Shown: positions 8,523-58,971 of the stretch, piece after piece | Numbering within the stretch: the stretch's first letter is position 1 | Layout: every line of letters starts with the position of its first letter | Assembly (NCBI RefSeq): GCF_965279435.1 | Contig: NZ_CBDIHY010000002.1 | Coordinates: 315,128-379,127, forward strand | Source: Pararhizobium sp. | GTDB taxonomy: Bacteria; Pseudomonadota; Alphaproteobacteria; Rhizobiales; Rhizobiaceae | DNA length: 64,000 nt | Direction of reading: 5' to 3' | Made by a program: the position numbers and the translations under genes | The notes under the pieces: generated by a model | Seen by the model: only the letters and a program-made list of their open reading frames with translations | Told to the model about the DNA's origin: nothing | The model's database searches: none

Positions 8523-9353
8523 CTATGCGGTTCCCGTTCGCCGCCGCAGGATCTCGATCTCGTGCCGGTCAAGAGCGCGGGCCGACCCTTTCGCCAACTC
8601 GCCCAGCTTGATATCGTCGATCGCGACGCGAACCAATCGAAGGCATTCGATATCCAGGCCCTTGAGCATTCTCCGGATCTGACGGTAGCGGCCCTCACGC
8701 AGCTCGACTTCCAGCCAAGTGCTTCTTCCTCCCGACCGCAGAATCTCGACGGATGAAGCCTTGAGCATCTCGCCGCCCTCGCATACGCCGCGGCGCATAT
8801 GGGCAATCATGTCGTCCGTCGGGGTGCTCCTCACCTGCACGTGATAGATCTTCCCGACATTGGTGACCGGATCGAGCAGGCGTTGGGCGAGCACCGTATC
8901 ATTGGTGAACAGCAGCAATCCCTCGCTTGCCTTGTCCAAACGGCCGACGGGGGAAAGGAAGGGATTGTCCATCTGCGCAAGGCAATCGAACACCGTTGGG
9001 CGCCCTTCAGGATCGACCCTTGTCGTCACCATACCACGTGGCTTGTTGAGCATGAGATAGACGCTGGATTGCGCAACCAGCCGGATGCCGTCGACCGCAA
9101 TGATGTCCTTATGAACGTCTGCCCATGTCAGGATATCGGTGACCACCCGCCCGCCCAGCGTCACGCGCCGTTCGGCGATCAGTGTTTCGGCTTGCGTGCG
9201 CGAACAATAGCCAAGTTTGGAAAGCGCACGGCAGATGGTTGCGCGTGCGCCGCTGTCGAATGCTTGTTTAGCCAAGTCGAAGTATTCCGGAAGCTTTGCT
9301 GCCTGGACTGCGCTGAGACACGCCACATCGTTTGCAGTTGCGCAGCCAATCAA
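8523..9353 (-). CDS. rRNA pseudouridine synthase (RsuA/RluB/E/F family); start uncertain
   Basis: S4-like domain (ALSKLGYCSRTQAETLI), LNKPRGMVTT, catalytic GRLD, and EGRYRQIRRM. Confidence 0.88.
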   Translation of the reverse strand: MIGCATANDVACLSAVQAAKLPEYFDLAKQAFDSGARATICRALSKLGYCSRTQAETLIAERRVTLGGRVVTDILTWADVHKDIIAVDGIRLVAQSSVYLMLNKPRGMVTTRVDPEGRPTVFDCLAQMDNPFLSPVGRLDKASEGLLLFTNDTVLAQRLLDPVTNVGKIYHVQVRSTPTDDMIAHMRRGVCEGGEMLKASSVEILRSGGRSTWLEVELREGRYRQIRRMLKGLDIECLRLVRVAIDDIKLGELAKGSARALDRHEIEILRRRTGTA

Positions 9354-9699
9354 CAGGGCAGCGCGCGATCAAACATGGATGGGTATCGGAATCCCGTCGA
9401 ACTGTAACGGGTGCGCAAAGGCGGTAGAGTGATCATGTCAGAAACCTGGCCGTCCCGAACGTCAAGCCAGGGCTTCTTCAACGTTCGGGCTAAGTGCCGG
9501 TTTTCGAGAGTTTAGACTCTCGCCGAAGGTGGATCACGATACGCGACATCATCTCGTTGCGTTTAGCCAAAACCGCTTAGAAGTCAAGCTGGGCGGCCTG
9601 CGGCGCTTTATCCATCGGCGGTTCGTCTGGACCCGCACGCGCCTGTTGCCCGATTGGGCAGGAGGCACTATCCATCAGGTCGACACGAAGGATTCCGCG

Positions 9700-10404
9700 A
9701 TGAGTGAAGACATGCAACCGGCTCTAGTTGAAAGGAAGCGGGGCGAAGGTGCAAAATTCGTCTATGAAATCTTGCGCGACGACATATTGAACCTCGTGCT
9801 TGAGCCGGGAAGCCCGATTGACGAGATTCAGCTGTCGCAGCGGCTGTCTATGTCGCGAACACCCATCCGCGAGGCGCTGGTCAGGCTGGCGAGTGAAGGG
9901 CTGGTGACCACCCTTCCCAACAGGTCTACGGTCGTATCCCCGATCGACTTTCTGAACCTTCATACATTCTTCGACGCCATCACGCTGATGTATCGGGTCA
10001 CGACCCGCCTTGCCGCGCAACATTACAAATCCGCCGACCTCGACATCATCCGCCAAAAGCAGAACGACTTCGCCGAGGCAGTGGCTGCACAGGATGCACT
10101 GGCGATGATATCAACCAATCGCGACTTTCACGCTGCCATCGCGGATGCGGGGCGTAACGCCTATTTCACAGGGCTCTTCTGCCGCCTGCTGGATGAAGGG
10201 CGCCGTATCATGCGGATTTACTACTCGTCATTCGAAGACCGCCTGCCCCATCGCTACGTCGTCGAACACGAGGATATGATCGTGGCGATCGAGGCGCGGG
10301 ATATCGATCTGGCCGATCAGCTGGCCGCTGCCCATGCGGACCAGATCGTCAAACAGATACAGCAGATGATAGCAAGCGACCGGCGGGTCAGCGTTCCACT
10401 TTGA
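9700..10404 (+). CDS. GntR/FCD family regulator (HypR-like)
   Basis: wHTH LSMSRTPIREAL plus FCD domain (NRDFHAAI). Directly upstream of a hypD-like gene. Confidence 0.85.
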   Translation: MSEDMQPALVERKRGEGAKFVYEILRDDILNLVLEPGSPIDEIQLSQRLSMSRTPIREALVRLASEGLVTTLPNRSTVVSPIDFLNLHTFFDAITLMYRVTTRLAAQHYKSADLDIIRQKQNDFAEAVAAQDALAMISTNRDFHAAIADAGRNAYFTGLFCRLLDEGRRIMRIYYSSFEDRLPHRYVVEHEDMIVAIEARDIDLADQLAAAHADQIVKQIQQMIASDRRVSVPL

Positions 10405-51991: not shown

Positions 51992-53419
51992 TCACAGCGC
52001 AGATGGCTTGATTTCGCTGCCGCCCCCACACAGCTTGCGTGCGTTTAAAAGCCCCCATCCGAACACCGGGTCTTTCCCCGGCTTTCCGATATCATCGGTA
52101 AATTCTCTCAGCCTTGCCTCCAGACTTTCCGTTGGCATATCCGGCTCGCCGGCAATCAGCGCCGAGACCGCCGCCGTTACGAAGGGGGCGGCGAAGGATG
52201 TGCCGGTTTTTTGCCGGGCGCCAGAGACGGACGCCGCAGTCCAGACCCCGACACCGGGAGCGGCAATATCAACATGATCGCCGCGCACGGCCCGGCGGTA
52301 AGGGTTGCGCGCCTTATCGACCGCCGTTACGGCAATCACGTCTTCATAGGCCGCAGGATAGACAGGCTTGGCATTCGGGCCATCATTGCCAGCGGCGGCC
52401 ACAAGGATCATGCCGCGATCGGCCGCCGCTTTCACGGACCTCTCGAGCACCGCGTTCGCCGGGCCGGTCAAGCTCAGATTGACGACCTTGATGTCACGTT
52501 GAACGAGCAGATCGAGCGCCCGTACGAGGTCGTAGGTGTCGGCGATATCCTTCGATTTTCCGAATCGCTTAAAGGCATCGACGGCGATGAGTTCGGCCCC
52601 TGGCAGGAGGCCCGGGACGCGGCTGTCCGATGCGCCGATCAAAAGGGCGGCGACGGCAGTGCCATGCTGTTCGCCCGATCTTTCCTCTTCCCCCTCACCG
52701 AGGCGAATGACCTCCAGCCGGGTATTCGTCAGGGTCACATGATCGACATTGATTGCCGTGTCGATAAGTCCGAGACGGGGCGGCTTGCCACACCCTGCGT
52801 TTTCGCCGGCCGGCCATCCAACGATGTCCCGGACGAGCGCGCAATCCTGCCCCGCACATCCTGTATTGCTCTCCGCTTGCGGCTGGTAGAAATGGTTGAA
52901 ATCGACCGCCGCCGTCGGGCTGCGGGCAACAACGGCAGCACGCGCCGTTGCGAGCGTCATGCCGCGCGGCACCACGAGACGCACCATTTCGCTGCCGATC
53001 AGCGAAATCTGTGTGCGCTCATCAACGGTAAAGCCCTGCTGGATCAATCCGGCGATCGCCTCTTCTTCAAGACCGACCGCGACGAGTTCGTTTGCCGCGC
53101 GCTCCGGCACGGCGGCTGGACGGCGCACCGGTGCACGGCGCTCGCGCGTTGGCCAGCGAAAGAGCGAACGCAGATCGCGCAAAGTGTCTCCGCCACGGTG
53201 ATATCCGGGGTTGCCACCGTCTCCACTGCGATTGTTACCACCGCCGCCGCTTCTACCGCCACCACCGCCGTTATCGTCGTCTCCATCGTCGTCATCGGCA
53301 AGCGCAACGGGGATGGTGAAGGCCGCGTCGTTCAGCGGCAGAGGCAGAACCACCAATGCTCCCACGGCGATTGCCGCAGTCAGGCGGCGCAATGGTTTTA
53401 TATTAGCAATGAACAGCAC
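51992..53419 (-). CDS. Secreted S8 (subtilase) serine protease
   Basis: Triad motifs LIDTAIN, HGTAVA and GTSFAAP; AAGNDG oxyanion motif; signal peptide followed by an Asp/Gly-rich linker. Confidence 0.92.
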   Translation of the reverse strand: MLFIANIKPLRRLTAAIAVGALVVLPLPLNDAAFTIPVALADDDDGDDDNGGGGGRSGGGGNNRSGDGGNPGYHRGGDTLRDLRSLFRWPTRERRAPVRRPAAVPERAANELVAVGLEEEAIAGLIQQGFTVDERTQISLIGSEMVRLVVPRGMTLATARAAVVARSPTAAVDFNHFYQPQAESNTGCAGQDCALVRDIVGWPAGENAGCGKPPRLGLIDTAINVDHVTLTNTRLEVIRLGEGEEERSGEQHGTAVAALLIGASDSRVPGLLPGAELIAVDAFKRFGKSKDIADTYDLVRALDLLVQRDIKVVNLSLTGPANAVLERSVKAAADRGMILVAAAGNDGPNAKPVYPAAYEDVIAVTAVDKARNPYRRAVRGDHVDIAAPGVGVWTAASVSGARQKTGTSFAAPFVTAAVSALIAGEPDMPTESLEARLREFTDDIGKPGKDPVFGWGLLNARKLCGGGSEIKPSAL

Positions 53420-53495
53420 GCTCAGTCTCCTGTGGCCGCTTCTTAATCCAGATTGTCAAACCAGGAAGCCGCTTTCGATCAAACTATCCTGAAAA

Positions 53496-53520
53496 TACGT
53501 TTGACTCGACAGCTTATTCC
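53496..53520 (-). promoter_or_regulatory. ECF-type promoter 1 (subtilase): GGAATA-N15-CGTA
   Basis: The minus strand reads GGAATA AGCTGTCGAGTCAAA CGTA. Confidence 0.72.
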
Positions 53521-53525
53521 CTGGC

Positions 53526-54083
53526 GTGCAAAAAAGCGGAATGACCAACGACATGCAGACAGTACCGGAACGGCTGGTTGCCTTCCTGCCGAACCTTAGG
53601 CGTTTTGCGATCTCGCTTTGCCGTTCCCGGGAGCTGGCGGACGATCTTGTGCAGACAGCCTGCGAGCGCGCCATCCTCGCCGCCGACAGTTTTATACCCG
53701 GCAGCCGCTTCGACGCCTGGATATTCCGCATTCTGCGCAATCTGTGGATCGATCACCTGCGCCGCCAGAAAACGGCAGGCCCGCAGACCGATCTGGAGGA
53801 GGCGCGCGATGTATCGGTTCCGTCCGGCGAAGCTGCATCGCTTGCGCGCATGGATCTGCGTGACGTCACCGCTGCCCTGCAAAAACTGCCGGACGAGCAG
53901 CGCGAAGTGCTCGTACTGGTCTGCGTCGAGGAACTGAGCTATCGCGACACGGCCGAGGTTCTGTCGATCCCAATCGGGACAGTGATGAGCCGGCTGGCCC
54001 GGGCACGGAAAAATCTTGCGGAACTGACAGGAATAAGTTTCGGGGAAAAACGTTCGTCCGATACGAAAGGGAGCCTTGCATGA
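53526..54083 (+). CDS. ECF RNA polymerase sigma factor (ECF26-like); start uncertain
   Basis: Sigma2 (ADDLVQTACERA, WIFRILRNLWID) and sigma4 (LSYRDTAEVLSIPIGTVMSRLARAR). Confidence 0.93.
   Translation: MQKSGMTNDMQTVPERLVAFLPNLRRFAISLCRSRELADDLVQTACERAILAADSFIPGSRFDAWIFRILRNLWIDHLRRQKTAGPQTDLEEARDVSVPSGEAASLARMDLRDVTAALQKLPDEQREVLVLVCVEELSYRDTAEVLSIPIGTVMSRLARARKNLAELTGISFGEKRSSDTKGSLA
54030..54054 (+). promoter_or_regulatory. ECF-type promoter 2, inside the sigma gene 3' end (anti-sigma): GGAATA-N15-CGTT
   Basis: GGAATA AGTTTCGGGGAAAAA CGTT, 25 nt before the anti-sigma ATG. Confidence 0.68.
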
Positions 54084-54811
54084 CCCGGCAGGATTTTGAC
54101 GACGAAACATTGATGGCTTTCGCCGACGGCGAACTGGACGAGGCGACAAGCGTGCAGCTGGAAGCAGCCCTTGCCGGCGACGAAGCGCTGGCCGAGCGCC
54201 TGGCTGTGTTTTTCGAAACCCGCCTGCTGGTCGCTGACGCCTTGAAGCCGCTGGCAGAAGAGCCTGTACCGGAAGCGCTGCTGGAATCCGTTCGCCGCAT
54301 GGCGGAAGAAGCGCGAAGCCGGGAAGCTCAGGCGGGCAACGTTGTGCCCTTCCGCGCAAAGCCGCTACAGGAGACACGCCGTTGGCTCATGCCCCTGGCG
54401 GCAAGTATCGTGGCGGTGATTACCGGCGTTGCCGGTTTCACGGTGGGCCGAAATCTGAACCCGTCCGCAGTGGATTCCAGCGCCGAAATCGCGGCAGTGC
54501 TGGACCGCGAGGCATCCGGGCGGGATATTGCGCTCAGCGCACCCGGTCAGACGCTTCATGTGATCGCCACCTTTCGCGACAAGAGCGGCGCACTCTGCCG
54601 CGAGTACGAGCTGAAACAGCCGTCGAGCAGCACGGTCTCGATCGCCTGCCGGCAGGACCGGACGTGGGTGACGCAGCTTGCCCTGACATCTGCGAAAGTT
54701 GAGGGTTACGTGCCTGCGTCGTCGCAGGACATGATCGATGCCTATCTCTCGTCGATCGAGGCCGGCGCACCGCTGTCGCCCGAAGAGGAACGGGGCATCC
54801 TGGCGCCCTGA
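54080..54811 (+). CDS. Membrane-anchored anti-sigma factor
   Basis: DDETLMAFADGELD anti-sigma domain, one TM, and a periplasmic C-domain with two Cys (CREY/IACR). ATGA overlap with the sigma gene. Confidence 0.88.
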   Translation: MTRQDFDDETLMAFADGELDEATSVQLEAALAGDEALAERLAVFFETRLLVADALKPLAEEPVPEALLESVRRMAEEARSREAQAGNVVPFRAKPLQETRRWLMPLAASIVAVITGVAGFTVGRNLNPSAVDSSAEIAAVLDREASGRDIALSAPGQTLHVIATFRDKSGALCREYELKQPSSSTVSIACRQDRTWVTQLALTSAKVEGYVPASSQDMIDAYLSSIEAGAPLSPEEERGILAP

Positions 54812-54831
54812 ATGAAATATTGTGTGCGCCG

Positions 54832-54856
54832 GGAATAAGTCTTTCCCGGCGCCGTT
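54832..54856 (+). promoter_or_regulatory. ECF-type promoter 3 (DUF6065-like gene): GGAATA-N15-CGTT
   Basis: GGAATA AGTCTTTCCCGGCGC CGTT. Confidence 0.72.
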
Positions 54857-54887
54857 CTTCTCGCATCAGTTCATGAGGAGAACAGCC

Positions 54888-55604
54888 ATGGCATTTGCCT
54901 TTCTGAAGACGCCACAGCCCCGGCTGACCTTTCTCTGCCGCAAGGAGGACGATGGCGTAATCCCCGCCCCCGTTCGCGCCAAGACGGCGCTGCCCGACTG
55001 GTTCCGCAAGCTGCCGCCGATCGACGAGGCGCATCTCTCGCCCACCAATAGCGGGCTGACGGTGAAACGCTGCATGCCCTTTCTCGATGCCATGGCGGCG
55101 GGCTGGATAATCGGGCTTGCGGCGACTGTGCGCATGGAAATCTCCGACGGCGGAAAGACGGTGGATTGCGGCTGGGATTTCGACCGCACGCTCGTCAGCA
55201 ATCATGCGAGCCATCAGGTTGCCGGTAATCCGCGCGGGCCGCTGCCGCCCTGCAAGTTTCACAATTACTGGACCATCCGCACGCCACCCGGCTGGAGCTG
55301 CCTGTTCGTGCCGCCGCTCAATCGCCCGAACGGTGTGTTCGAAATCGTCGCCGGGGTCGTGGATACGGACACCTATCAGTCGGAAATCCACTTCCCGTTC
55401 TTCGCCACCGGCGAGGACGGCCTGCATCTGCTGGAACGTGGCACGCCGATCGTCCAGGTTATTCCGTTCCGCCGGGAGACGTCGGACCTCGACGCGGACA
55501 TCCGCACTGAAAGCCAGGCGGAGGGTAACGTTCGCCAGACGATCCTGCGCAAGACGCTCGCATCGGATGGCTGGTATCGCAGGTTTGCCCGCGCGCCGCG
55601 GTAA
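54888..55604 (+). CDS. Hypothetical protein, DUF6065-like
   Basis: GAGGAG RBS; KRCMPFLDAMAAGW, WTIRTPPGWSCLFVPPLNR, GVVDTD and GTPIVQVIPF. Family recalled from memory. Confidence 0.72.
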   Translation: MAFAFLKTPQPRLTFLCRKEDDGVIPAPVRAKTALPDWFRKLPPIDEAHLSPTNSGLTVKRCMPFLDAMAAGWIIGLAATVRMEISDGGKTVDCGWDFDRTLVSNHASHQVAGNPRGPLPPCKFHNYWTIRTPPGWSCLFVPPLNRPNGVFEIVAGVVDTDTYQSEIHFPFFATGEDGLHLLERGTPIVQVIPFRRETSDLDADIRTESQAEGNVRQTILRKTLASDGWYRRFARAPR

Positions 55605-55620
55605 TTTCCCTGCCCATTTA

Positions 55621-55660
55621 GCGTTTTGCCGCCGCTGCCCACCCAGCGGCGGCAAAACGC
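55621..55660. terminator. Perfect 17-bp inverted repeat downstream of the DUF6065-like gene
   Basis: GCGTTTTGCCGCCGCTG-cccacc-CAGCGGCGGCAAAACGC; no U-tract on the + strand. Confidence 0.5.
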
Positions 55661-55708
55661 GTGGTGTCAGATGCGGATCATGCCTCTGAAAATATTTTCA
55701 TTTTCTCG

Positions 55709-55733
55709 GGAATAGGAAAAGCCCACCGCCGTT
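55709..55733 (+). promoter_or_regulatory. ECF-type promoter 4 (NSSS-repeat gene): GGAATA-N15-CGTT
   Basis: GGAATA GGAAAAGCCCACCGC CGTT. Confidence 0.72.
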
Positions 55734-55777
55734 TCTCCTCTGCAGCCAACGAGGCTGTCACTCCAAGGAGAAACGGC

Positions 55778-56137
55778 ATGAAGAAGTTCATCGCAATCCT
55801 GAGCGCATTCCTGGTCGTCGGTGCAGCAGCACCCGCGCCAGCCAGCGCCGACGATCCGGTCACGCGCTTTCTGCAGAAGGTAACGCGGAGCAACAAGGCG
55901 AGCCACGCCCACTATAATCGCGAGCGCGATGACAATCGGGGCGGCGGCTGGAGTTCGAACCGCAATTCCAACAGCTCGTCGAATTCCTCCCGCAATTCCA
56001 GCTCGAATTCGAACTCCAACAGCAGCTCCAATTCCTCAAGCAATTCAAGCTCAAACAGTTCGTCCAATTCCTCGAGCAACTCGAGCTCGAATTCATCGTC
56101 CAATTCGTCGTCGAATTCCTCTTCTGACGACGATTAA
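55778..56137 (+). CDS. Secreted Ser/Asn-repeat protein (119 aa)
   Basis: AAGGAG RBS; signal peptide MKKFIAILSAFLVVGAAAPAPASA; the C-terminal half is almost all Ser/Asn and ends in DDD. Confidence 0.82.
   Translation: MKKFIAILSAFLVVGAAAPAPASADDPVTRFLQKVTRSNKASHAHYNRERDDNRGGGWSSNRNSNSSSNSSRNSSSNSNSNSSSNSSSNSSSNSSSNSSSNSSSNSSSNSSSNSSSDDD
56018..56125 (+). repeat. Nine tandem NSSS peptide repeats encoded by nine different 12-mers
   Basis: Direct codon-by-codon reading; all six Ser codons are used. Confidence 0.9.
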
Positions 56138-56170
56138 GACACAGCCGACCAGACCGAAAGGAGGGCGATC

Positions 56171-57649
56171 ATGGCCCTTTATGCAATCGTTCCTCCCGAA
56201 CCCCACGCCGATCGGCGTGGGGAACCGTCTCCTGCCACAGAGCCGGCCGTACCGCTTACCCGTGTCAAGCAGATCGTCGCGGTGATCGTACTCGTCTTCA
56301 GTGCCATGCTGATCTTCCTGGCGATCGACGGTCTCAGCGTGAACATGCGGCTGACGCTCGCCGTCTTTGTCGCAACCATCACCGCCTGGACCATTCTCGA
56401 CTTGCCGGACACGCCGGTGGCGCTTGCGGGCGCGGCTACCCTGGCCGTTGTCGGTGCAATTGACGAGGACGTGCTTTACCGCTCGCTCGGCAATGACATT
56501 GTCTGGCTGATGCTGGCGGCTTTCGTCGTTGCCGGCGTGCTGCGTCAGGTCGGCGTCATCGAACAGATCATTCGCCGCCTGCTCGCCCGGCTCGCCACCG
56601 TGCAAGGTCTGTTCTGGGCGCTGACGCTGTTGATTTTCGCCACTGCCTTCATCATCCCCTCGACCTCGGCGCGTGCCGCCATGCTGGCGCCGGTCTATCT
56701 CGGCATCGCCGTCGCGATCGGCAATGCACGGGTTAATCGGGCGCTCGCGTTGCTCTTCCCCTCCGTCATCCTGCTTTCGGCCGGTGCTTCGCTGATTGGT
56801 GCCGGCGCCCATCTCGTCGCGGCGGGGATGATGCAGCGTTTGAGCGGCCAAAGCCCCGATTTCCTGGGCTGGATCACGCTTGCCGGCCCCTTCTCGCTTC
56901 TATGCTCGCTGCTCGCTTGCGCCGTGCTGCTGCGCTTCTTCCTGACACGCGAAGAGCGGGTAATGGCGATCGCAGAACGCAACGCCGACGAGGCCCCGAC
57001 CCCACTGACGCGCCAGCAATGGACTGTGCTTGCGGTCACCGGCGCGATGATCCTGCTCTTTGCAGCCCAACCCATGCACGGCGTCGGCATGCCGCTGATC
57101 GGCATCGCCGCCGCGCTGCTTTTGGCCAACCAAAAGGTCTCCGGCCTGCCATTGAAGACAGCGCTCAAGAGCGTCGAATGGAACCTGCTGCTATTCCTCG
57201 CCGGCACGCTCGTCATCGGCGAGGCGCTGCTGGAGACCGGCACAGCAAAGGTGCTGGCCGACCGGATGGTCGGTCTTGCCAGCAGCGGTATCGCGGCCTG
57301 GCCCGCACTTATTGTCGCGTTCGCCGCTATTGCCGCTACGCTCTCCCACCTCGTCATCACGTCGCGCACGGCACGAGCGACCGTCCTCATACCTGCGCTT
57401 GCGCTGCCGGTCGCAGCCCTCGGCGTTGACCCGCTCAATCTCGTCATGGTCGTCACGCTGGCGAGCGGCTTTTGCCAGACGCTGATGGTATCCGCCAAAC
57501 CGGTGGCGCTGTTCGGCGCAATGGATCCGCCGCCCTTCGGGCAGTCCGACCTGTTGCGGCTCGCCGGCTTTCTGATCGTGCCCTTCGTGCTACTGCTCGT
57601 TGTCTTTGCCACACTCGTTTGGCCGCTGCAGGGTCTGCCGCTGCACTGA
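56171..57649 (+). CDS. SLC13/DASS family anion permease
   Basis: Many TM segments; FIIPSTSARAAML and HLVITSRTARATVLIP hairpin-like motifs; GGAGG RBS. Confidence 0.85.
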   Translation: MALYAIVPPEPHADRRGEPSPATEPAVPLTRVKQIVAVIVLVFSAMLIFLAIDGLSVNMRLTLAVFVATITAWTILDLPDTPVALAGAATLAVVGAIDEDVLYRSLGNDIVWLMLAAFVVAGVLRQVGVIEQIIRRLLARLATVQGLFWALTLLIFATAFIIPSTSARAAMLAPVYLGIAVAIGNARVNRALALLFPSVILLSAGASLIGAGAHLVAAGMMQRLSGQSPDFLGWITLAGPFSLLCSLLACAVLLRFFLTREERVMAIAERNADEAPTPLTRQQWTVLAVTGAMILLFAAQPMHGVGMPLIGIAAALLLANQKVSGLPLKTALKSVEWNLLLFLAGTLVIGEALLETGTAKVLADRMVGLASSGIAAWPALIVAFAAIAATLSHLVITSRTARATVLIPALALPVAALGVDPLNLVMVVTLASGFCQTLMVSAKPVALFGAMDPPPFGQSDLLRLAGFLIVPFVLLLVVFATLVWPLQGLPLH

Positions 57650-57669
57650 ACGATGCCGACAGACACAGG

Positions 57670-57696
57670 AAAAGGCCGCCGCGTGCGGCCTTTTTT
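57670..57696 (+). terminator. Rho-independent terminator after the SLC13 gene
   Basis: AAAAGGCCGC-cgcgt-GCGGCCTTTTTT. Confidence 0.85.
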
Positions 57697-57727
57697 ATTT
57701 AGTCGGCTAATTTATTTTCAGTTTGCC

Positions 57728-57752
57728 GGAATAGATTGAGAACCGCCCCGTT
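57728..57752 (+). promoter_or_regulatory. ECF-type promoter 5 (glycerate kinase): GGAATA-N15-CGTT
   Basis: GGAATA GATTGAGAACCGCCC CGTT, just after the terminator. Confidence 0.72.
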
Positions 57753-57795
57753 CCTCCCCTGTCACATCGTTGTCACAGTCAAAAAGGAACACCCC

Positions 57796-58971
57796 ATGTC
57801 TTTCACGGTTCTCGTCGCCCCCTCCGGTTTCAAGGAAAGCCTGTCGGCAGACCAGGCAGCGGATTGCATCGAAAGTGGCGTTCTGCGCGCCTTTCCCGGC
57901 GTTACCATCATCAAGGCGCCAATGGTCGATGGCGGCGAGGGTTTCGCCAAAGCGCTCGTCAAGGCGACCAACGGTACGCTTTACAATCTGACCGTGACCG
58001 GCCCAGTCAACGACCCGGTCGAAGCACATTTTGGGTTCCTCGGCGGTAGCGGTGAGCCGACCGCTGTGATCGAGATGGCCGCGGCCGCCGGGCTCAGCCT
58101 TGTACCGCGCGACCGGCGTAATCCCTGTCTGACAACGAGCTACGGCGTCGGCGAACTGGTGCGTGCAGCACTTGACCGGGGTGCGCGCCGCATCCTTCTC
58201 GGTTGTGGCGACAGCGGTATCAACGATGGCGGCGCCGGTATGGCCGAAGTGCTCGGTATCCGGTTTCTGGACGGGGCGGGCGATCCCTTGCCCCGCGGTG
58301 GGGCGGCGCTTGCCCGCCTCGAGACGATTGACATGAGCGGCCGCGATCCGCGCCTTGACGGCGTTCGCATCGATGCCGCCGTCAACTGGCACAATGTGCT
58401 CCTTGGCGAGCGCGGTGTGGCGCGCATTTTCGGGCCACAGAAGGGCGCAACGCCGGAACAGGTGGAACTGCTCGTTGCGGCGATGGAGACATACGCTGCA
58501 GCGATCCAGGGCACGACGGGCATCGCAGTCGGGATGGCACCCGGATCCGGTGCGTCCGGCGGTCTCGGTGCTGCGGTGTTCGGCCTCCTCGGCGGCAAGC
58601 TGCACCCGCGCTACGATATCGTCATGCAATATCTGGAGCTCGACCGTTTCATCGCGCAGGCTGATCTGGTCATCACCGCAGAGGGCAGCCTCGACGGGCA
58701 AACCCCATTCGGAAAGGTGCCTGCCGAAGTGGCCGCACGGGCAAAAATTGCCGGTGTGCCCGTCATCGCGCTTGCCGGCACCATCGGCAAAGGCGTGCGC
58801 CTGAATTTCGAGCATGGTATTGATGCCTTTGCCTCGATCCTCAGCAGGCCCTGCTCGCTAGAAGACGCCATCTTCAGCGCTCCAAAACTGCTGTCCCGGG
58901 CGGCAGAAGATGCAGCACGCATGGTGATGGTGGGTATGAAACTTGGGGCAAGATGGCGCCAGGTTGCGTGA
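57796..58971 (+). CDS. Glycerate kinase (GlxK/GarK family)
   Basis: VAPSGFKESL, MVDGGEG, IEMAAAAGL, GSGASGG, TAEGSLDGQT and GKVP. Confidence 0.92.
   Translation: MSFTVLVAPSGFKESLSADQAADCIESGVLRAFPGVTIIKAPMVDGGEGFAKALVKATNGTLYNLTVTGPVNDPVEAHFGFLGGSGEPTAVIEMAAAAGLSLVPRDRRNPCLTTSYGVGELVRAALDRGARRILLGCGDSGINDGGAGMAEVLGIRFLDGAGDPLPRGGAALARLETIDMSGRDPRLDGVRIDAAVNWHNVLLGERGVARIFGPQKGATPEQVELLVAAMETYAAAIQGTTGIAVGMAPGSGASGGLGAAVFGLLGGKLHPRYDIVMQYLELDRFIAQADLVITAEGSLDGQTPFGKVPAEVAARAKIAGVPVIALAGTIGKGVRLNFEHGIDAFASILSRPCSLEDAIFSAPKLLSRAAEDAARMVMVGMKLGARWRQVA

Follow-up and report, generated by a model that had tools for sequence, protein, structure and literature searches.

RESULTS

A seven-gene locus with five equally spaced motifs

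The locus described here occupies positions 51,992 to 58,971 of a 64,000-nucleotide (nt) stretch of Pararhizobium sp. DNA (contig NZ_CBDIHY010000002.1, positions 315,128 to 379,127; hereafter the window), which lies on a 910-kb replicon of a 5.69-Mb assembly of three contigs. It comprises seven genes: on the minus strand a secreted S8 (subtilase) serine protease and, divergently on the plus strand, an extracytoplasmic function (ECF) sigma factor, a membrane anti-sigma factor, a cytoplasmic DUF6065 protein, a secreted protein with an (NSSS)n repeat, a DASS/SLC13 anion permease and a glycerate kinase. A bipartite motif, GGAATA-N15-CGTW, precedes five of these genes. Based on experiments with an orthologous system and on a phylogenetic footprint, we consider it very likely that the five motifs are the promoters of a regulon governed by the local sigma/anti-sigma pair, which would be an ortholog of RpoE6/EcfR6 of Sinorhizobium meliloti with a complete local regulon.

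An initial annotation, made from the letters alone, had reported five motifs of identical spacing. Searching both strands of the window for exact matches to GGAATA-N15-CGTW, we found these same five, compared with a mean of 0.04 and a maximum of 1 in dinucleotide-preserving shuffles of the window. As the window holds 35 GGAATA hexamers in total but five full matches, the special feature is the coupling to CGTW at a distance of 15 nt. The copies are GGAATAAGCTGTCGAGTCAAACGTA for the S8 protease (53496..53520, minus strand; predicted start at about 53487) and, on the plus strand, GGAATAAGTTTCGGGGAAAAACGTT for the anti-sigma gene (54030..54054; start about 54063), GGAATAAGTCTTTCCCGGCGCCGTT for the DUF6065 gene (54832..54856; start about 54865), GGAATAGGAAAAGCCCACCGCCGTT for the unit of the NSSS protein and the permease (55709..55733; start about 55742) and GGAATAGATTGAGAACCGCCCCGTT for the glycerate kinase (57728..57752; start about 57761). 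In this order, the motifs end 76, 25, 31, 44 and 43 nt before a start codon (GTG at 53419 for the protease; ATG at 54080, 54888, 55778 and 57796), each of which is preceded by a ribosome-binding site. Four copies are intergenic and the one at 54030 lies within the 3' end of the sigma open reading frame (ORF), both as annotated initially. Strong hairpins do occur before the motifs, but three plus-strand copies follow or overlap one, not two as had been counted.

Across the genome, 16 exact matches were found, five of them within a 4.3-kb part of this locus; the other eleven lie mostly in coding sequence or are without a plausible downstream gene. The initial annotation had suggested scanning the genome with a position weight matrix (PWM). 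A PWM derived from orthologous sites places the five local sites on ranks 1 to 5 of the whole genome (23.5-31.2 bits), and no other site scores as high, the next one reaching 20.4 bits. The next-best sites (C3:114451, C3:3045770 and C3:1796562) all score clearly lower than the local five. Two of these are intergenic-looking copies of GGAATA-N15-CGT: the one at C3:1796562(+) precedes a 219-amino-acid protein with two H-x-T/S motifs, which by eye is 2H-phosphoesterase/LigT-like, and the one at C3:3045770(-) precedes a 93-amino-acid protein. Both may be targets of a paralogous ECF sigma factor.

All seven module genes are present as a single copy in the genome, and the nearest sigma paralogs are just 41-43% identical, so that the regulon looks self-contained in this genome. 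This agrees with the initial description of a self-contained module: seven genes can be delimited, their flanks differ in relatives, and no comparable site lies elsewhere in the genome. The gene identities proposed in that description were likewise confirmed by Pfam and NCBIfam profiles.

Orthology to the RpoE6 regulon of S. meliloti

The initial annotation knew of no described system with this composition. This claim does not hold, since the core of the locus corresponds to the published RpoE6/EcfR6 regulon (SMa0142-SMa0148) on pSymA of S. meliloti, whose mapped starts follow GGAATA-N15-CGTT (Lang et al. 2018, mSphere; PMC6180224). Upon overexpression of RpoE6, the log2 fold change was 4.7 for SMa0142 (protease), 3.6 for ecfR6 and 6.5 for SMa0148, the strongest response, and SMa0146 was also induced (PMC6180224). 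By 5'-RACE (rapid amplification of cDNA ends) and/or RNA-seq, starts were mapped behind GGAATAGACCGACGACTCAGCCGTT (SMa0142, by both methods), GGAATAACACAGGCGACCGGACGTT (ecfR6, inside the rpoE6 ORF) and GGAATAGAAGCCTCTCCGTTCCGTT (SMa0148), and in all three promoters, which follow GGAATA-N15-CGTT, the start lies 9-12 nt after CGTT (PMC6180224). The start-site distance of 5-8 nt expected in the initial annotation was thus roughly right, but too short. Its proposal of ECF-type promoters with an ECF26-like GGAATA is supported by the cross-species ECF26 consensus, which has GGAATA as the -35 and GT as the -10 element (PMC6180224). Furthermore, in an S. meliloti strain free of ECF sigma factors, a heterologous ECF26 promoter responded strongly to RpoE6 (PMC10880074).

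One of the related loci that we compared (L002, on an accessory plasmid of S. meliloti M162) holds the published promoter strings verbatim, including the RpoD/RpoH-like promoter of rpoE6. It also encodes an S8 protease, an anti-sigma factor, a DUF6065 protein and an (NSSS)n ORF, and its sigma factor is 65% identical to that of the window. As it carries the published strings of the SMa0148 locus and encodes DUF6065, the DUF6065 protein of this locus equates with SMa0148; SMa0146 is probably the (NSSS)n gene. In the literature searched, SMa0146 and SMa0148 appear in Lang et al. only, and SMa0142 is mentioned once in one further paper.

Both systems share the divergent S8 protease, the downstream anti-sigma gene with stop/start overlap and its promoter within the sigma ORF, the DUF6065 (SMa0148) and (NSSS)n genes as nearby targets, the GGAATA-N15-CGTT motif and a sigma gene without an ECF-type promoter. 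They differ in arrangement, as the DUF6065 gene of S. meliloti is convergent and follows the NSSS gene, whereas that of the window shares the strand of the anti-sigma and NSSS genes and stands between them. Neither the SLC13 permease nor the glycerate kinase is encoded in the S. meliloti locus; both would be regulon members in the window. The main text of Lang et al. makes no mention of a glycerate kinase (PMC6180224). Conversely, the S. meliloti target SMa0139, a glyoxalase-type enzyme, has no counterpart in the window module. The S. meliloti regulon is known from experiment, that of the window from sequence.

Conservation of the motif across related loci

An alignment of DUF6065 proteins provided the 80 best loci out of at least 579 relatives, taken from contigs of one genome per species; together with two plasmid loci, these make 82 loci (1.53 Mb; individual loci carry L numbers) from Rhizobiaceae, Phyllobacteriaceae, Hyphomicrobiaceae, Paracoccaceae, Stappiaceae, Xanthobacteraceae, Inquilinus and others. 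GGAATA-N15-CGT matches 294 times in them, compared with 4-18 matches for each of the other spacers between N10 and N21. Conservation in orthologous loci, which the initial annotation had named as a check, is evident across the 82 loci: the place of the motif and its 15-nt spacing are kept, while spacers and flanks have diverged to the point of being unrelated between clades. Outside the two blocks, conservation is limited to an A or G following GGAATA, the final T of CGTT and a run rich in pyrimidines behind CGTT. The motif is asymmetric rather than palindromic, it is always directed at the downstream gene and it lies 18-76 nt before the start codon. The exact motif was found upstream of the S8 protease in 51 of 60 related loci, inside the sigma ORF in 49 of the 58 loci that have an anti-sigma gene, and upstream of DUF6065 in 71 of 82, there at 18-47 nt from the start codon and amid spacers and flanks that are unrelated.

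Seven genomes allow the motif to be separated from the gene neighbourhood. In these, the DUF6065/NSSS pair keeps its motifs with no sigma gene within 10 kb. An orthologous anti-sigma gene is present elsewhere in all seven, and six of them contain a distant triad of S8 protease, sigma and anti-sigma genes with the protease promoter and the internal anti-sigma promoter. Because the motif is kept at both places, it tracks the sigma factor and not the gene neighbourhood. The parts of these split regulons (L017, L042, L048, L055, L061, L068, L071 and L090-L096) lie mostly on different contigs. Within the genus of the organism, the module was found in its own genome and in 4 of 36 species, and it is often plasmid-borne; given both this patchy distribution and the plasmid location, we regard it as accessory and mobile.

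The sigma and anti-sigma genes

The sigma factor (180 amino acids; 53541..54083, plus strand) contains the sigma2 and sigma4 domains only (Pfam Sigma70_r2, residues 20-82; Sigma70_r4_2, residues 112-164) and matches TIGR02937 with 101 bits at a cut-off of 42.9. Its NCBIfam ECF matches are generic and all remain below the equivalog cut-offs. The start codon, ATG at 53541, is conserved across relatives, and the protein is 64-65% identical to its S. meliloti homolog over 99% of its length. Domain content, orthology together with synteny (divergent serine protease, downstream anti-sigma gene) and the GGAATA / (C)GT target promoters indicate that it is an RpoE6-type member of group ECF26. The group generally (Staron 2009; Casas-Pastor 2021 classification) shares the -35 element GGAATA and a -10 element containing GT. 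Other subgroups have different associations: ECF26s1 is tied to catalase and cytochrome b561 (PMC7826278), and others are tied to sulfite oxidation, as in the sulfite response of S. meliloti RpoE1/RpoE4 (PMC3511301), whereas the RpoE6-type subgroup goes with an S8 protease, DUF6065 and the (NSSS)n protein. In the main text of the paper that reclassified the ECF sigma factors, ECF26s1 is the only subgroup described and the RpoE6-type one is not covered.

Upstream of the sigma gene, GGAATA-N15-CGT was not found on the plus strand, nor did an alignment of the intergenic region reveal anything equivalent to the RpoD/RpoH-like promoter that serves rpoE6 in S. meliloti. Unlike the other spacers, that of the S8 promoter (53497-53520) is near-invariant in the Rhizobium-type clade; it reads ACGTTTGACTCGACAGCTTATTCC on the plus strand and includes TTGACT about 35 nt before the ATG of the sigma gene. 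TTGACT may be the -35 element of a sigma-gene promoter, in which case the mRNA would be nearly leaderless, or else another regulator may bind there.

The anti-sigma gene (243 amino acids; 54080..54811, plus strand) has a start codon that overlaps the sigma stop (ATGA, 54080-54083), and its promoter motif lies inside the last sigma codons. Across the loci we observed two feedback designs that are mutually exclusive: the motif lies inside the sigma ORF in 49 loci, upstream of the sigma gene in nine (Hyphomicrobium, Paracoccaceae and other distant clades), and at both places in none. Since the sigma gene of the window has no such promoter and transcription of the anti-sigma gene would begin inside the sigma ORF, we predict feedback that is negative, with no positive autoregulation. 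Many ECF sigma factors are positively autoregulated, whereas the clade of the window drives the anti-sigma gene only, a design which Lang et al. 2018 discussed for ecfR6 (PMC6180224).

The anti-sigma factor shows the architecture of a class I anti-sigma factor, i.e. a gene coupled to that of the sigma factor, an N-terminal helical domain (residues 8-84), a single membrane segment (about 101-123) and an extracytoplasmic, periplasmic alpha/beta domain (128-243). In its AlphaFold2 model (mean predicted local distance difference test score, pLDDT, 80.8), the hydrophobic stretch 100-128 is of low confidence and the domain 128-243 is confident. Two Cys residues of the periplasmic domain, C173 and C190, are invariant in the alignment of relatives. 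Profile matches are weak (zf-HC2, 17.1 bits at a cut-off of 22.2; NF052375, 41.5 at a cut-off of 100), a Foldseek search with the periplasmic domain gave nothing significant (best E = 0.065), and a PDB sequence search gave no match. Lang et al. mention a similarity to RsiW, for which we obtained no confirmation.

Behind the anti-sigma stop, a 10-bp GC-rich hairpin (54826..54852, plus strand; -21 kcal/mol, z = -4.65) takes in, with its 5' arm and loop, the -35 element of the promoter of the DUF6065 gene, such that terminator and promoter share 30 nt (54826-54856). A comparable overlap occurs in some relatives only (L013, L030, L034-L038 and L040).

The protease, the DUF6065 protein and the (NSSS)n protein

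The S8 protease (475 amino acids; 51992..53419, minus strand) matches Peptidase_S8 (PF00082) with E = 1.4e-31 and 110.3 bits at a cut-off of 21.8. An N-terminal hydrophobic signal or anchor is followed by an Asp/Gly-rich tract, and the catalytic triad of Asp, His and Ser is recognized in the motifs LIDTA, HGTAVA and GTSFAAP, which together with the domain score places the protein in family S8. It is an ortholog of S. meliloti SMa0142.

The DUF6065 protein (238 amino acids; 54888..55604, plus strand) matches PF19541 with 30.6 bits at a gathering cut-off of 26.6, a match that spans residues 60-200 only. A Foldseek search of the PDB with its AlphaFold2 model (pLDDT 84.3) returned as top matches exclusively trimeric dUTPases, with E values from 5e-5 and target-normalised template-modelling scores of 0.6-0.77. 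The predicted beta-barrel core superposes on dUTPases (human DUT, 1q5h; Drosophila, 3ecy), and by eye the conserved stretches AGVVDTDTY..EIHFPF and PIVQVI resemble dUTPase motifs III and IV. In contrast to dUTPases, the protein is about 100 residues longer and is without a recognisable C-terminal P-loop-like motif V; Pfam dUTPase/DCD profiles gave no match at E values up to 10. Membership of the dUTPase enzyme family, which is marked by five motifs including V and by a profile match, is thus not indicated. As no dUTPase sequence profile matches and motif V is not recognisable, we name the protein dUTPase-fold and not dUTPase: according to the model it is a dUTPase-fold protein only, and enzymatic activity is not implied. 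A guess of our own, a cupin or 2-oxoglutarate oxygenase, was rejected, since the model matches dUTPases. A literature search found no mention of DUF6065. The gene is followed by a perfect 17-bp hairpin without a T-run (55621..55660, plus strand; -37.5 kcal/mol, z = -8.45), which probably bounds the transcript.

The secreted (NSSS)n protein (119 amino acids; 55778..56137, plus strand) consists of a signal peptide, a charged linker, a Ser/Asn tract and a DDD tail. Each of its 11 NSSS units is specified by a different 12-mer, which implies that selection acts on the peptide. NSS is also an N-X-S sequon, and the repeat is reminiscent of the (DSS)n repeats of phosphophoryn. Counterparts are found across Alphaproteobacteria, including S. 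meliloti, and in most of the 82 loci the motif lies 42-57 nt before the ATG of the (NSSS)n protein. All 19 NSSS genes detected by tblastn have the motif, as do some 50 additional NSSS ORFs. Of the 73 motif instances that remain once the profiled genes are set aside, most stand before ORFs that encode a signal peptide, followed by (NSSS)12-25 and then a short tail of charged residues. The (NSSS)n protein is a near-universal partner of DUF6065 in Alphaproteobacteria (about 60 related loci, e.g. L042:11186-, L052:11209- and L071:11244-), and its tails are of two types, either ...SSDDD or an Arg/Trp-rich tail after an IIVAGNSSS entry.

At L002:9331-9784, on the accessory plasmid of S. meliloti M162, RefSeq annotates a minus-strand 'hypothetical protein' of 129 amino acids (9331-9720). 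On the plus strand, between the anti-sigma and DUF6065 genes, we found a fourth motif, GGAATA-N15-CGTT (9348), followed by AAGGAG and an ATG at 9422 that opens a signal peptide and an (NSSS)n tract. The RefSeq ORF at L002:9331-9720 is probably an antisense artefact of the NSSS repeat.

The permease and the glycerate kinase

The permease (492 amino acids; 56171..57649, plus strand) is VcINDY-like and matches the Pfam families Na_sulph_symp (PF00939, 80.6 bits at a cut-off of 27) and CitMHS (PF03600, 103.6 at a cut-off of 31.9); with TIGR00785 it scores 105.9 bits, below the cut-off of 198.6. Its PDB match is VcINDY (2e-13, residues 34-484), and VcINDY-type transporters are dicarboxylate carriers. 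The profile matches and the similarity to solved DASS transporters together assign it to DASS/SLC13. The gene is separated from the preceding NSSS gene by 33 nt that contain no terminator, which makes co-transcription of the two likely, and it is followed by an intrinsic terminator with a GC stem and T6 (57670..57696, plus strand; -19.6 kcal/mol, z = -3.96).

The glycerate kinase (391 amino acids; 57796..58971, plus strand) is a full-length member of the Gly_kinase family (Pfam E = 7e-135; PF02595, 450 bits; TIGR00045, 437.9 bits at a cut-off of 168). Both equivalog models, for the 2-kinase and for the 3-kinase, score below their cut-offs. A single tblastn match identifies it as the sole copy of the family in the genome.

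Permease and kinase are both present in 19 of the 82 loci, among which at least four gene arrangements occur. In the Rhizobium-type arrangement, as in the window, the NSSS and SLC13 genes are followed by the terminator, the promoter and the kinase. In L029, permease and kinase lie beyond the protease, each with its own motif; in L058 (Paracoccaceae), the order is S8, SLC13, motif and kinase; and in L066 (Hyphomicrobium) and L071 (Stappiaceae), permease and kinase each have their own motif. The permease thus has its own motif in three rearranged loci. At the kinase, the motif was found in all 19 loci, 35-54 nt upstream in 18 of them; as the motif of L039 overlaps the start codon, we consider 18 of the 19 convincing. 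That both genes were placed repeatedly and independently behind the same promoter argues for their being true regulon members in those lineages. We take the pair to be an accessory one that was recruited to the regulon in a subset of lineages.

DISCUSSION

In the mechanism that we propose, the membrane anti-sigma factor would hold the sigma factor via its N-terminal helical domain, as its domain architecture suggests, and a periplasmic cue sensed by the Cys-containing C-terminal domain would lead to release of the sigma factor. RNA polymerase carrying the sigma factor would then initiate about 9 nt downstream of each GGAATA-N15-CGTW and generate five transcription units predicted to be insulated by hairpins or terminators: the S8 protease on the divergent strand, the anti-sigma gene, the DUF6065 gene, the NSSS gene with the SLC13 gene, and the glycerate kinase. 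The first four functions would form the conserved core, with permease and kinase as accessory members.

Several points weigh against this interpretation. The start-site evidence stems from the S. meliloti ortholog, and the support from S. meliloti is based on overexpression. The ECF26 group assignment is based on orthology to RpoE6, a scan upstream of the sigma gene for a sigma-70 consensus promoter of its own gave no match, and the role of permease and kinase, i.e. import of an organic anion and entry of glycerate into glycolysis, is a conjecture that we hold with low confidence. Moreover, the genome encodes two sigma paralogs of 41-43% identity (C2:85886-86329 and C3:6316-6765), and ECF26 paralogs cross-activate weakly in S. 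meliloti, where SMa0142 shows weak induction by RpoE4 and the regulon of RpoE6 overlaps with that of RpoE2 (PMC6180224). The motifs could then be promoters served mainly by another ECF sigma factor, either an ECF26-type paralog or a general stress sigma factor, with the local sigma factor as one input; the activation of a heterologous ECF26 promoter by RpoE1 and RpoE4 as well (PMC10880074) would fit such a situation. We regard it as improbable, as the response of the local S. meliloti genes to RpoE6 (log2 fold change 3.6-6.5) is far above that to the paralogs (PMC6180224), the motif-bearing genes co-occur with an RpoE6-type sigma/anti-sigma pair across families and in split genomes, and the confinement of the best PWM sites of the genome to the module weighs against another sigma factor as the main driver.

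It is less probable still that a DNA-binding regulator of non-sigma type recognizes the bipartite motif, or that the motif belongs to a repeat or a mobile sequence. That start sites are known from the ortholog only would be compatible with either, and one motif copy lies within a hairpin (54826-54852), as is common for repeated extragenic elements. A motif of two short blocks with a rigid 15-nt spacing, a free spacer and a non-palindromic, gene-directed layout is, however, not what a non-sigma regulator would lead one to expect, and in S. meliloti the mapped starts lie 9-12 nt behind CGTT. A repeat element is excluded by the lack of sequence conservation outside the two blocks. Finally, the eleven other exact matches in the genome, mostly in coding sequence, might suggest that the five matches are a chance cluster of a short degenerate pattern; this reading is refuted, its likelihood being negligible given 0.04 matches per shuffled window, a position kept in 82 loci and a specificity for the 15-nt spacing.

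We therefore favour the promoters of an RpoE6-type regulon. Its core (S8 protease, sigma factor, anti-sigma factor, DUF6065 and (NSSS)n protein) is an ortholog of a known, mapped regulon, and no new type of regulatory system is involved; what exceeds the S. meliloti description is limited to the SLC13 permease and the glycerate kinase. For the annotation, the gain consists of five promoters, five transcription units, predicted starts and a feedback design for seven genes that would otherwise be annotated separately. The RpoE6 regulon is also not specific to Sinorhizobium: DUF6065 has at least 579 relatives in the species genomes scanned, and the 80 best loci span multiple families, nearly all of them with the motif. 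The module can be described as a fixed core of S8 protease, dUTPase-fold protein and (NSSS)n protein with variable additions, and the fact that a DASS permease and a glycerate kinase were repeatedly brought under this type of promoter offers a new hint at the physiology of the regulon.

The loci show that co-regulation of the core is conserved; what the core does is a matter of conjecture. We speculate, well aware that this is rather unlikely to be right, that the RpoE6-type regulon is a widespread and hitherto undescribed alphaproteobacterial envelope programme centred on the secreted (NSSS)n polypeptide, with the S8 protease responsible for its maturation or turnover and the cytoplasmic dUTPase-fold enzyme in its service. 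If true, the outcome would be a novel material outside the cytoplasm, for instance a polymer that binds cations, serves hydration or coats the surface, for which a dedicated salvage route would exist, and the lineage-specific additions, be it poly-Asp proteins, RTX-type calcium-binding proteins or the DASS permease with the glycerate kinase, would be part of the same programme.

In some relatives, the motif stands before RTX/hemolysin-type calcium-binding repeat proteins (GGxGxD) or small secreted poly-Asp proteins (L019:11471+, L081:9908-, L088:6935+, L089:9877-; L029:6706+, L040:4025+), which hints at a cation-related theme for the regulon. Apart from this, a 33-mer, CAGGAATAGGTCCTTGCGACCGCCGTCATCAGG, occurs in four identical copies in the genome, at C3:1124339(-), C3:1881249(+), C3:2048669(+) and C1:222092(-); presumably it belongs to a repeated element, for instance an insertion sequence, and has no relation to the regulon.

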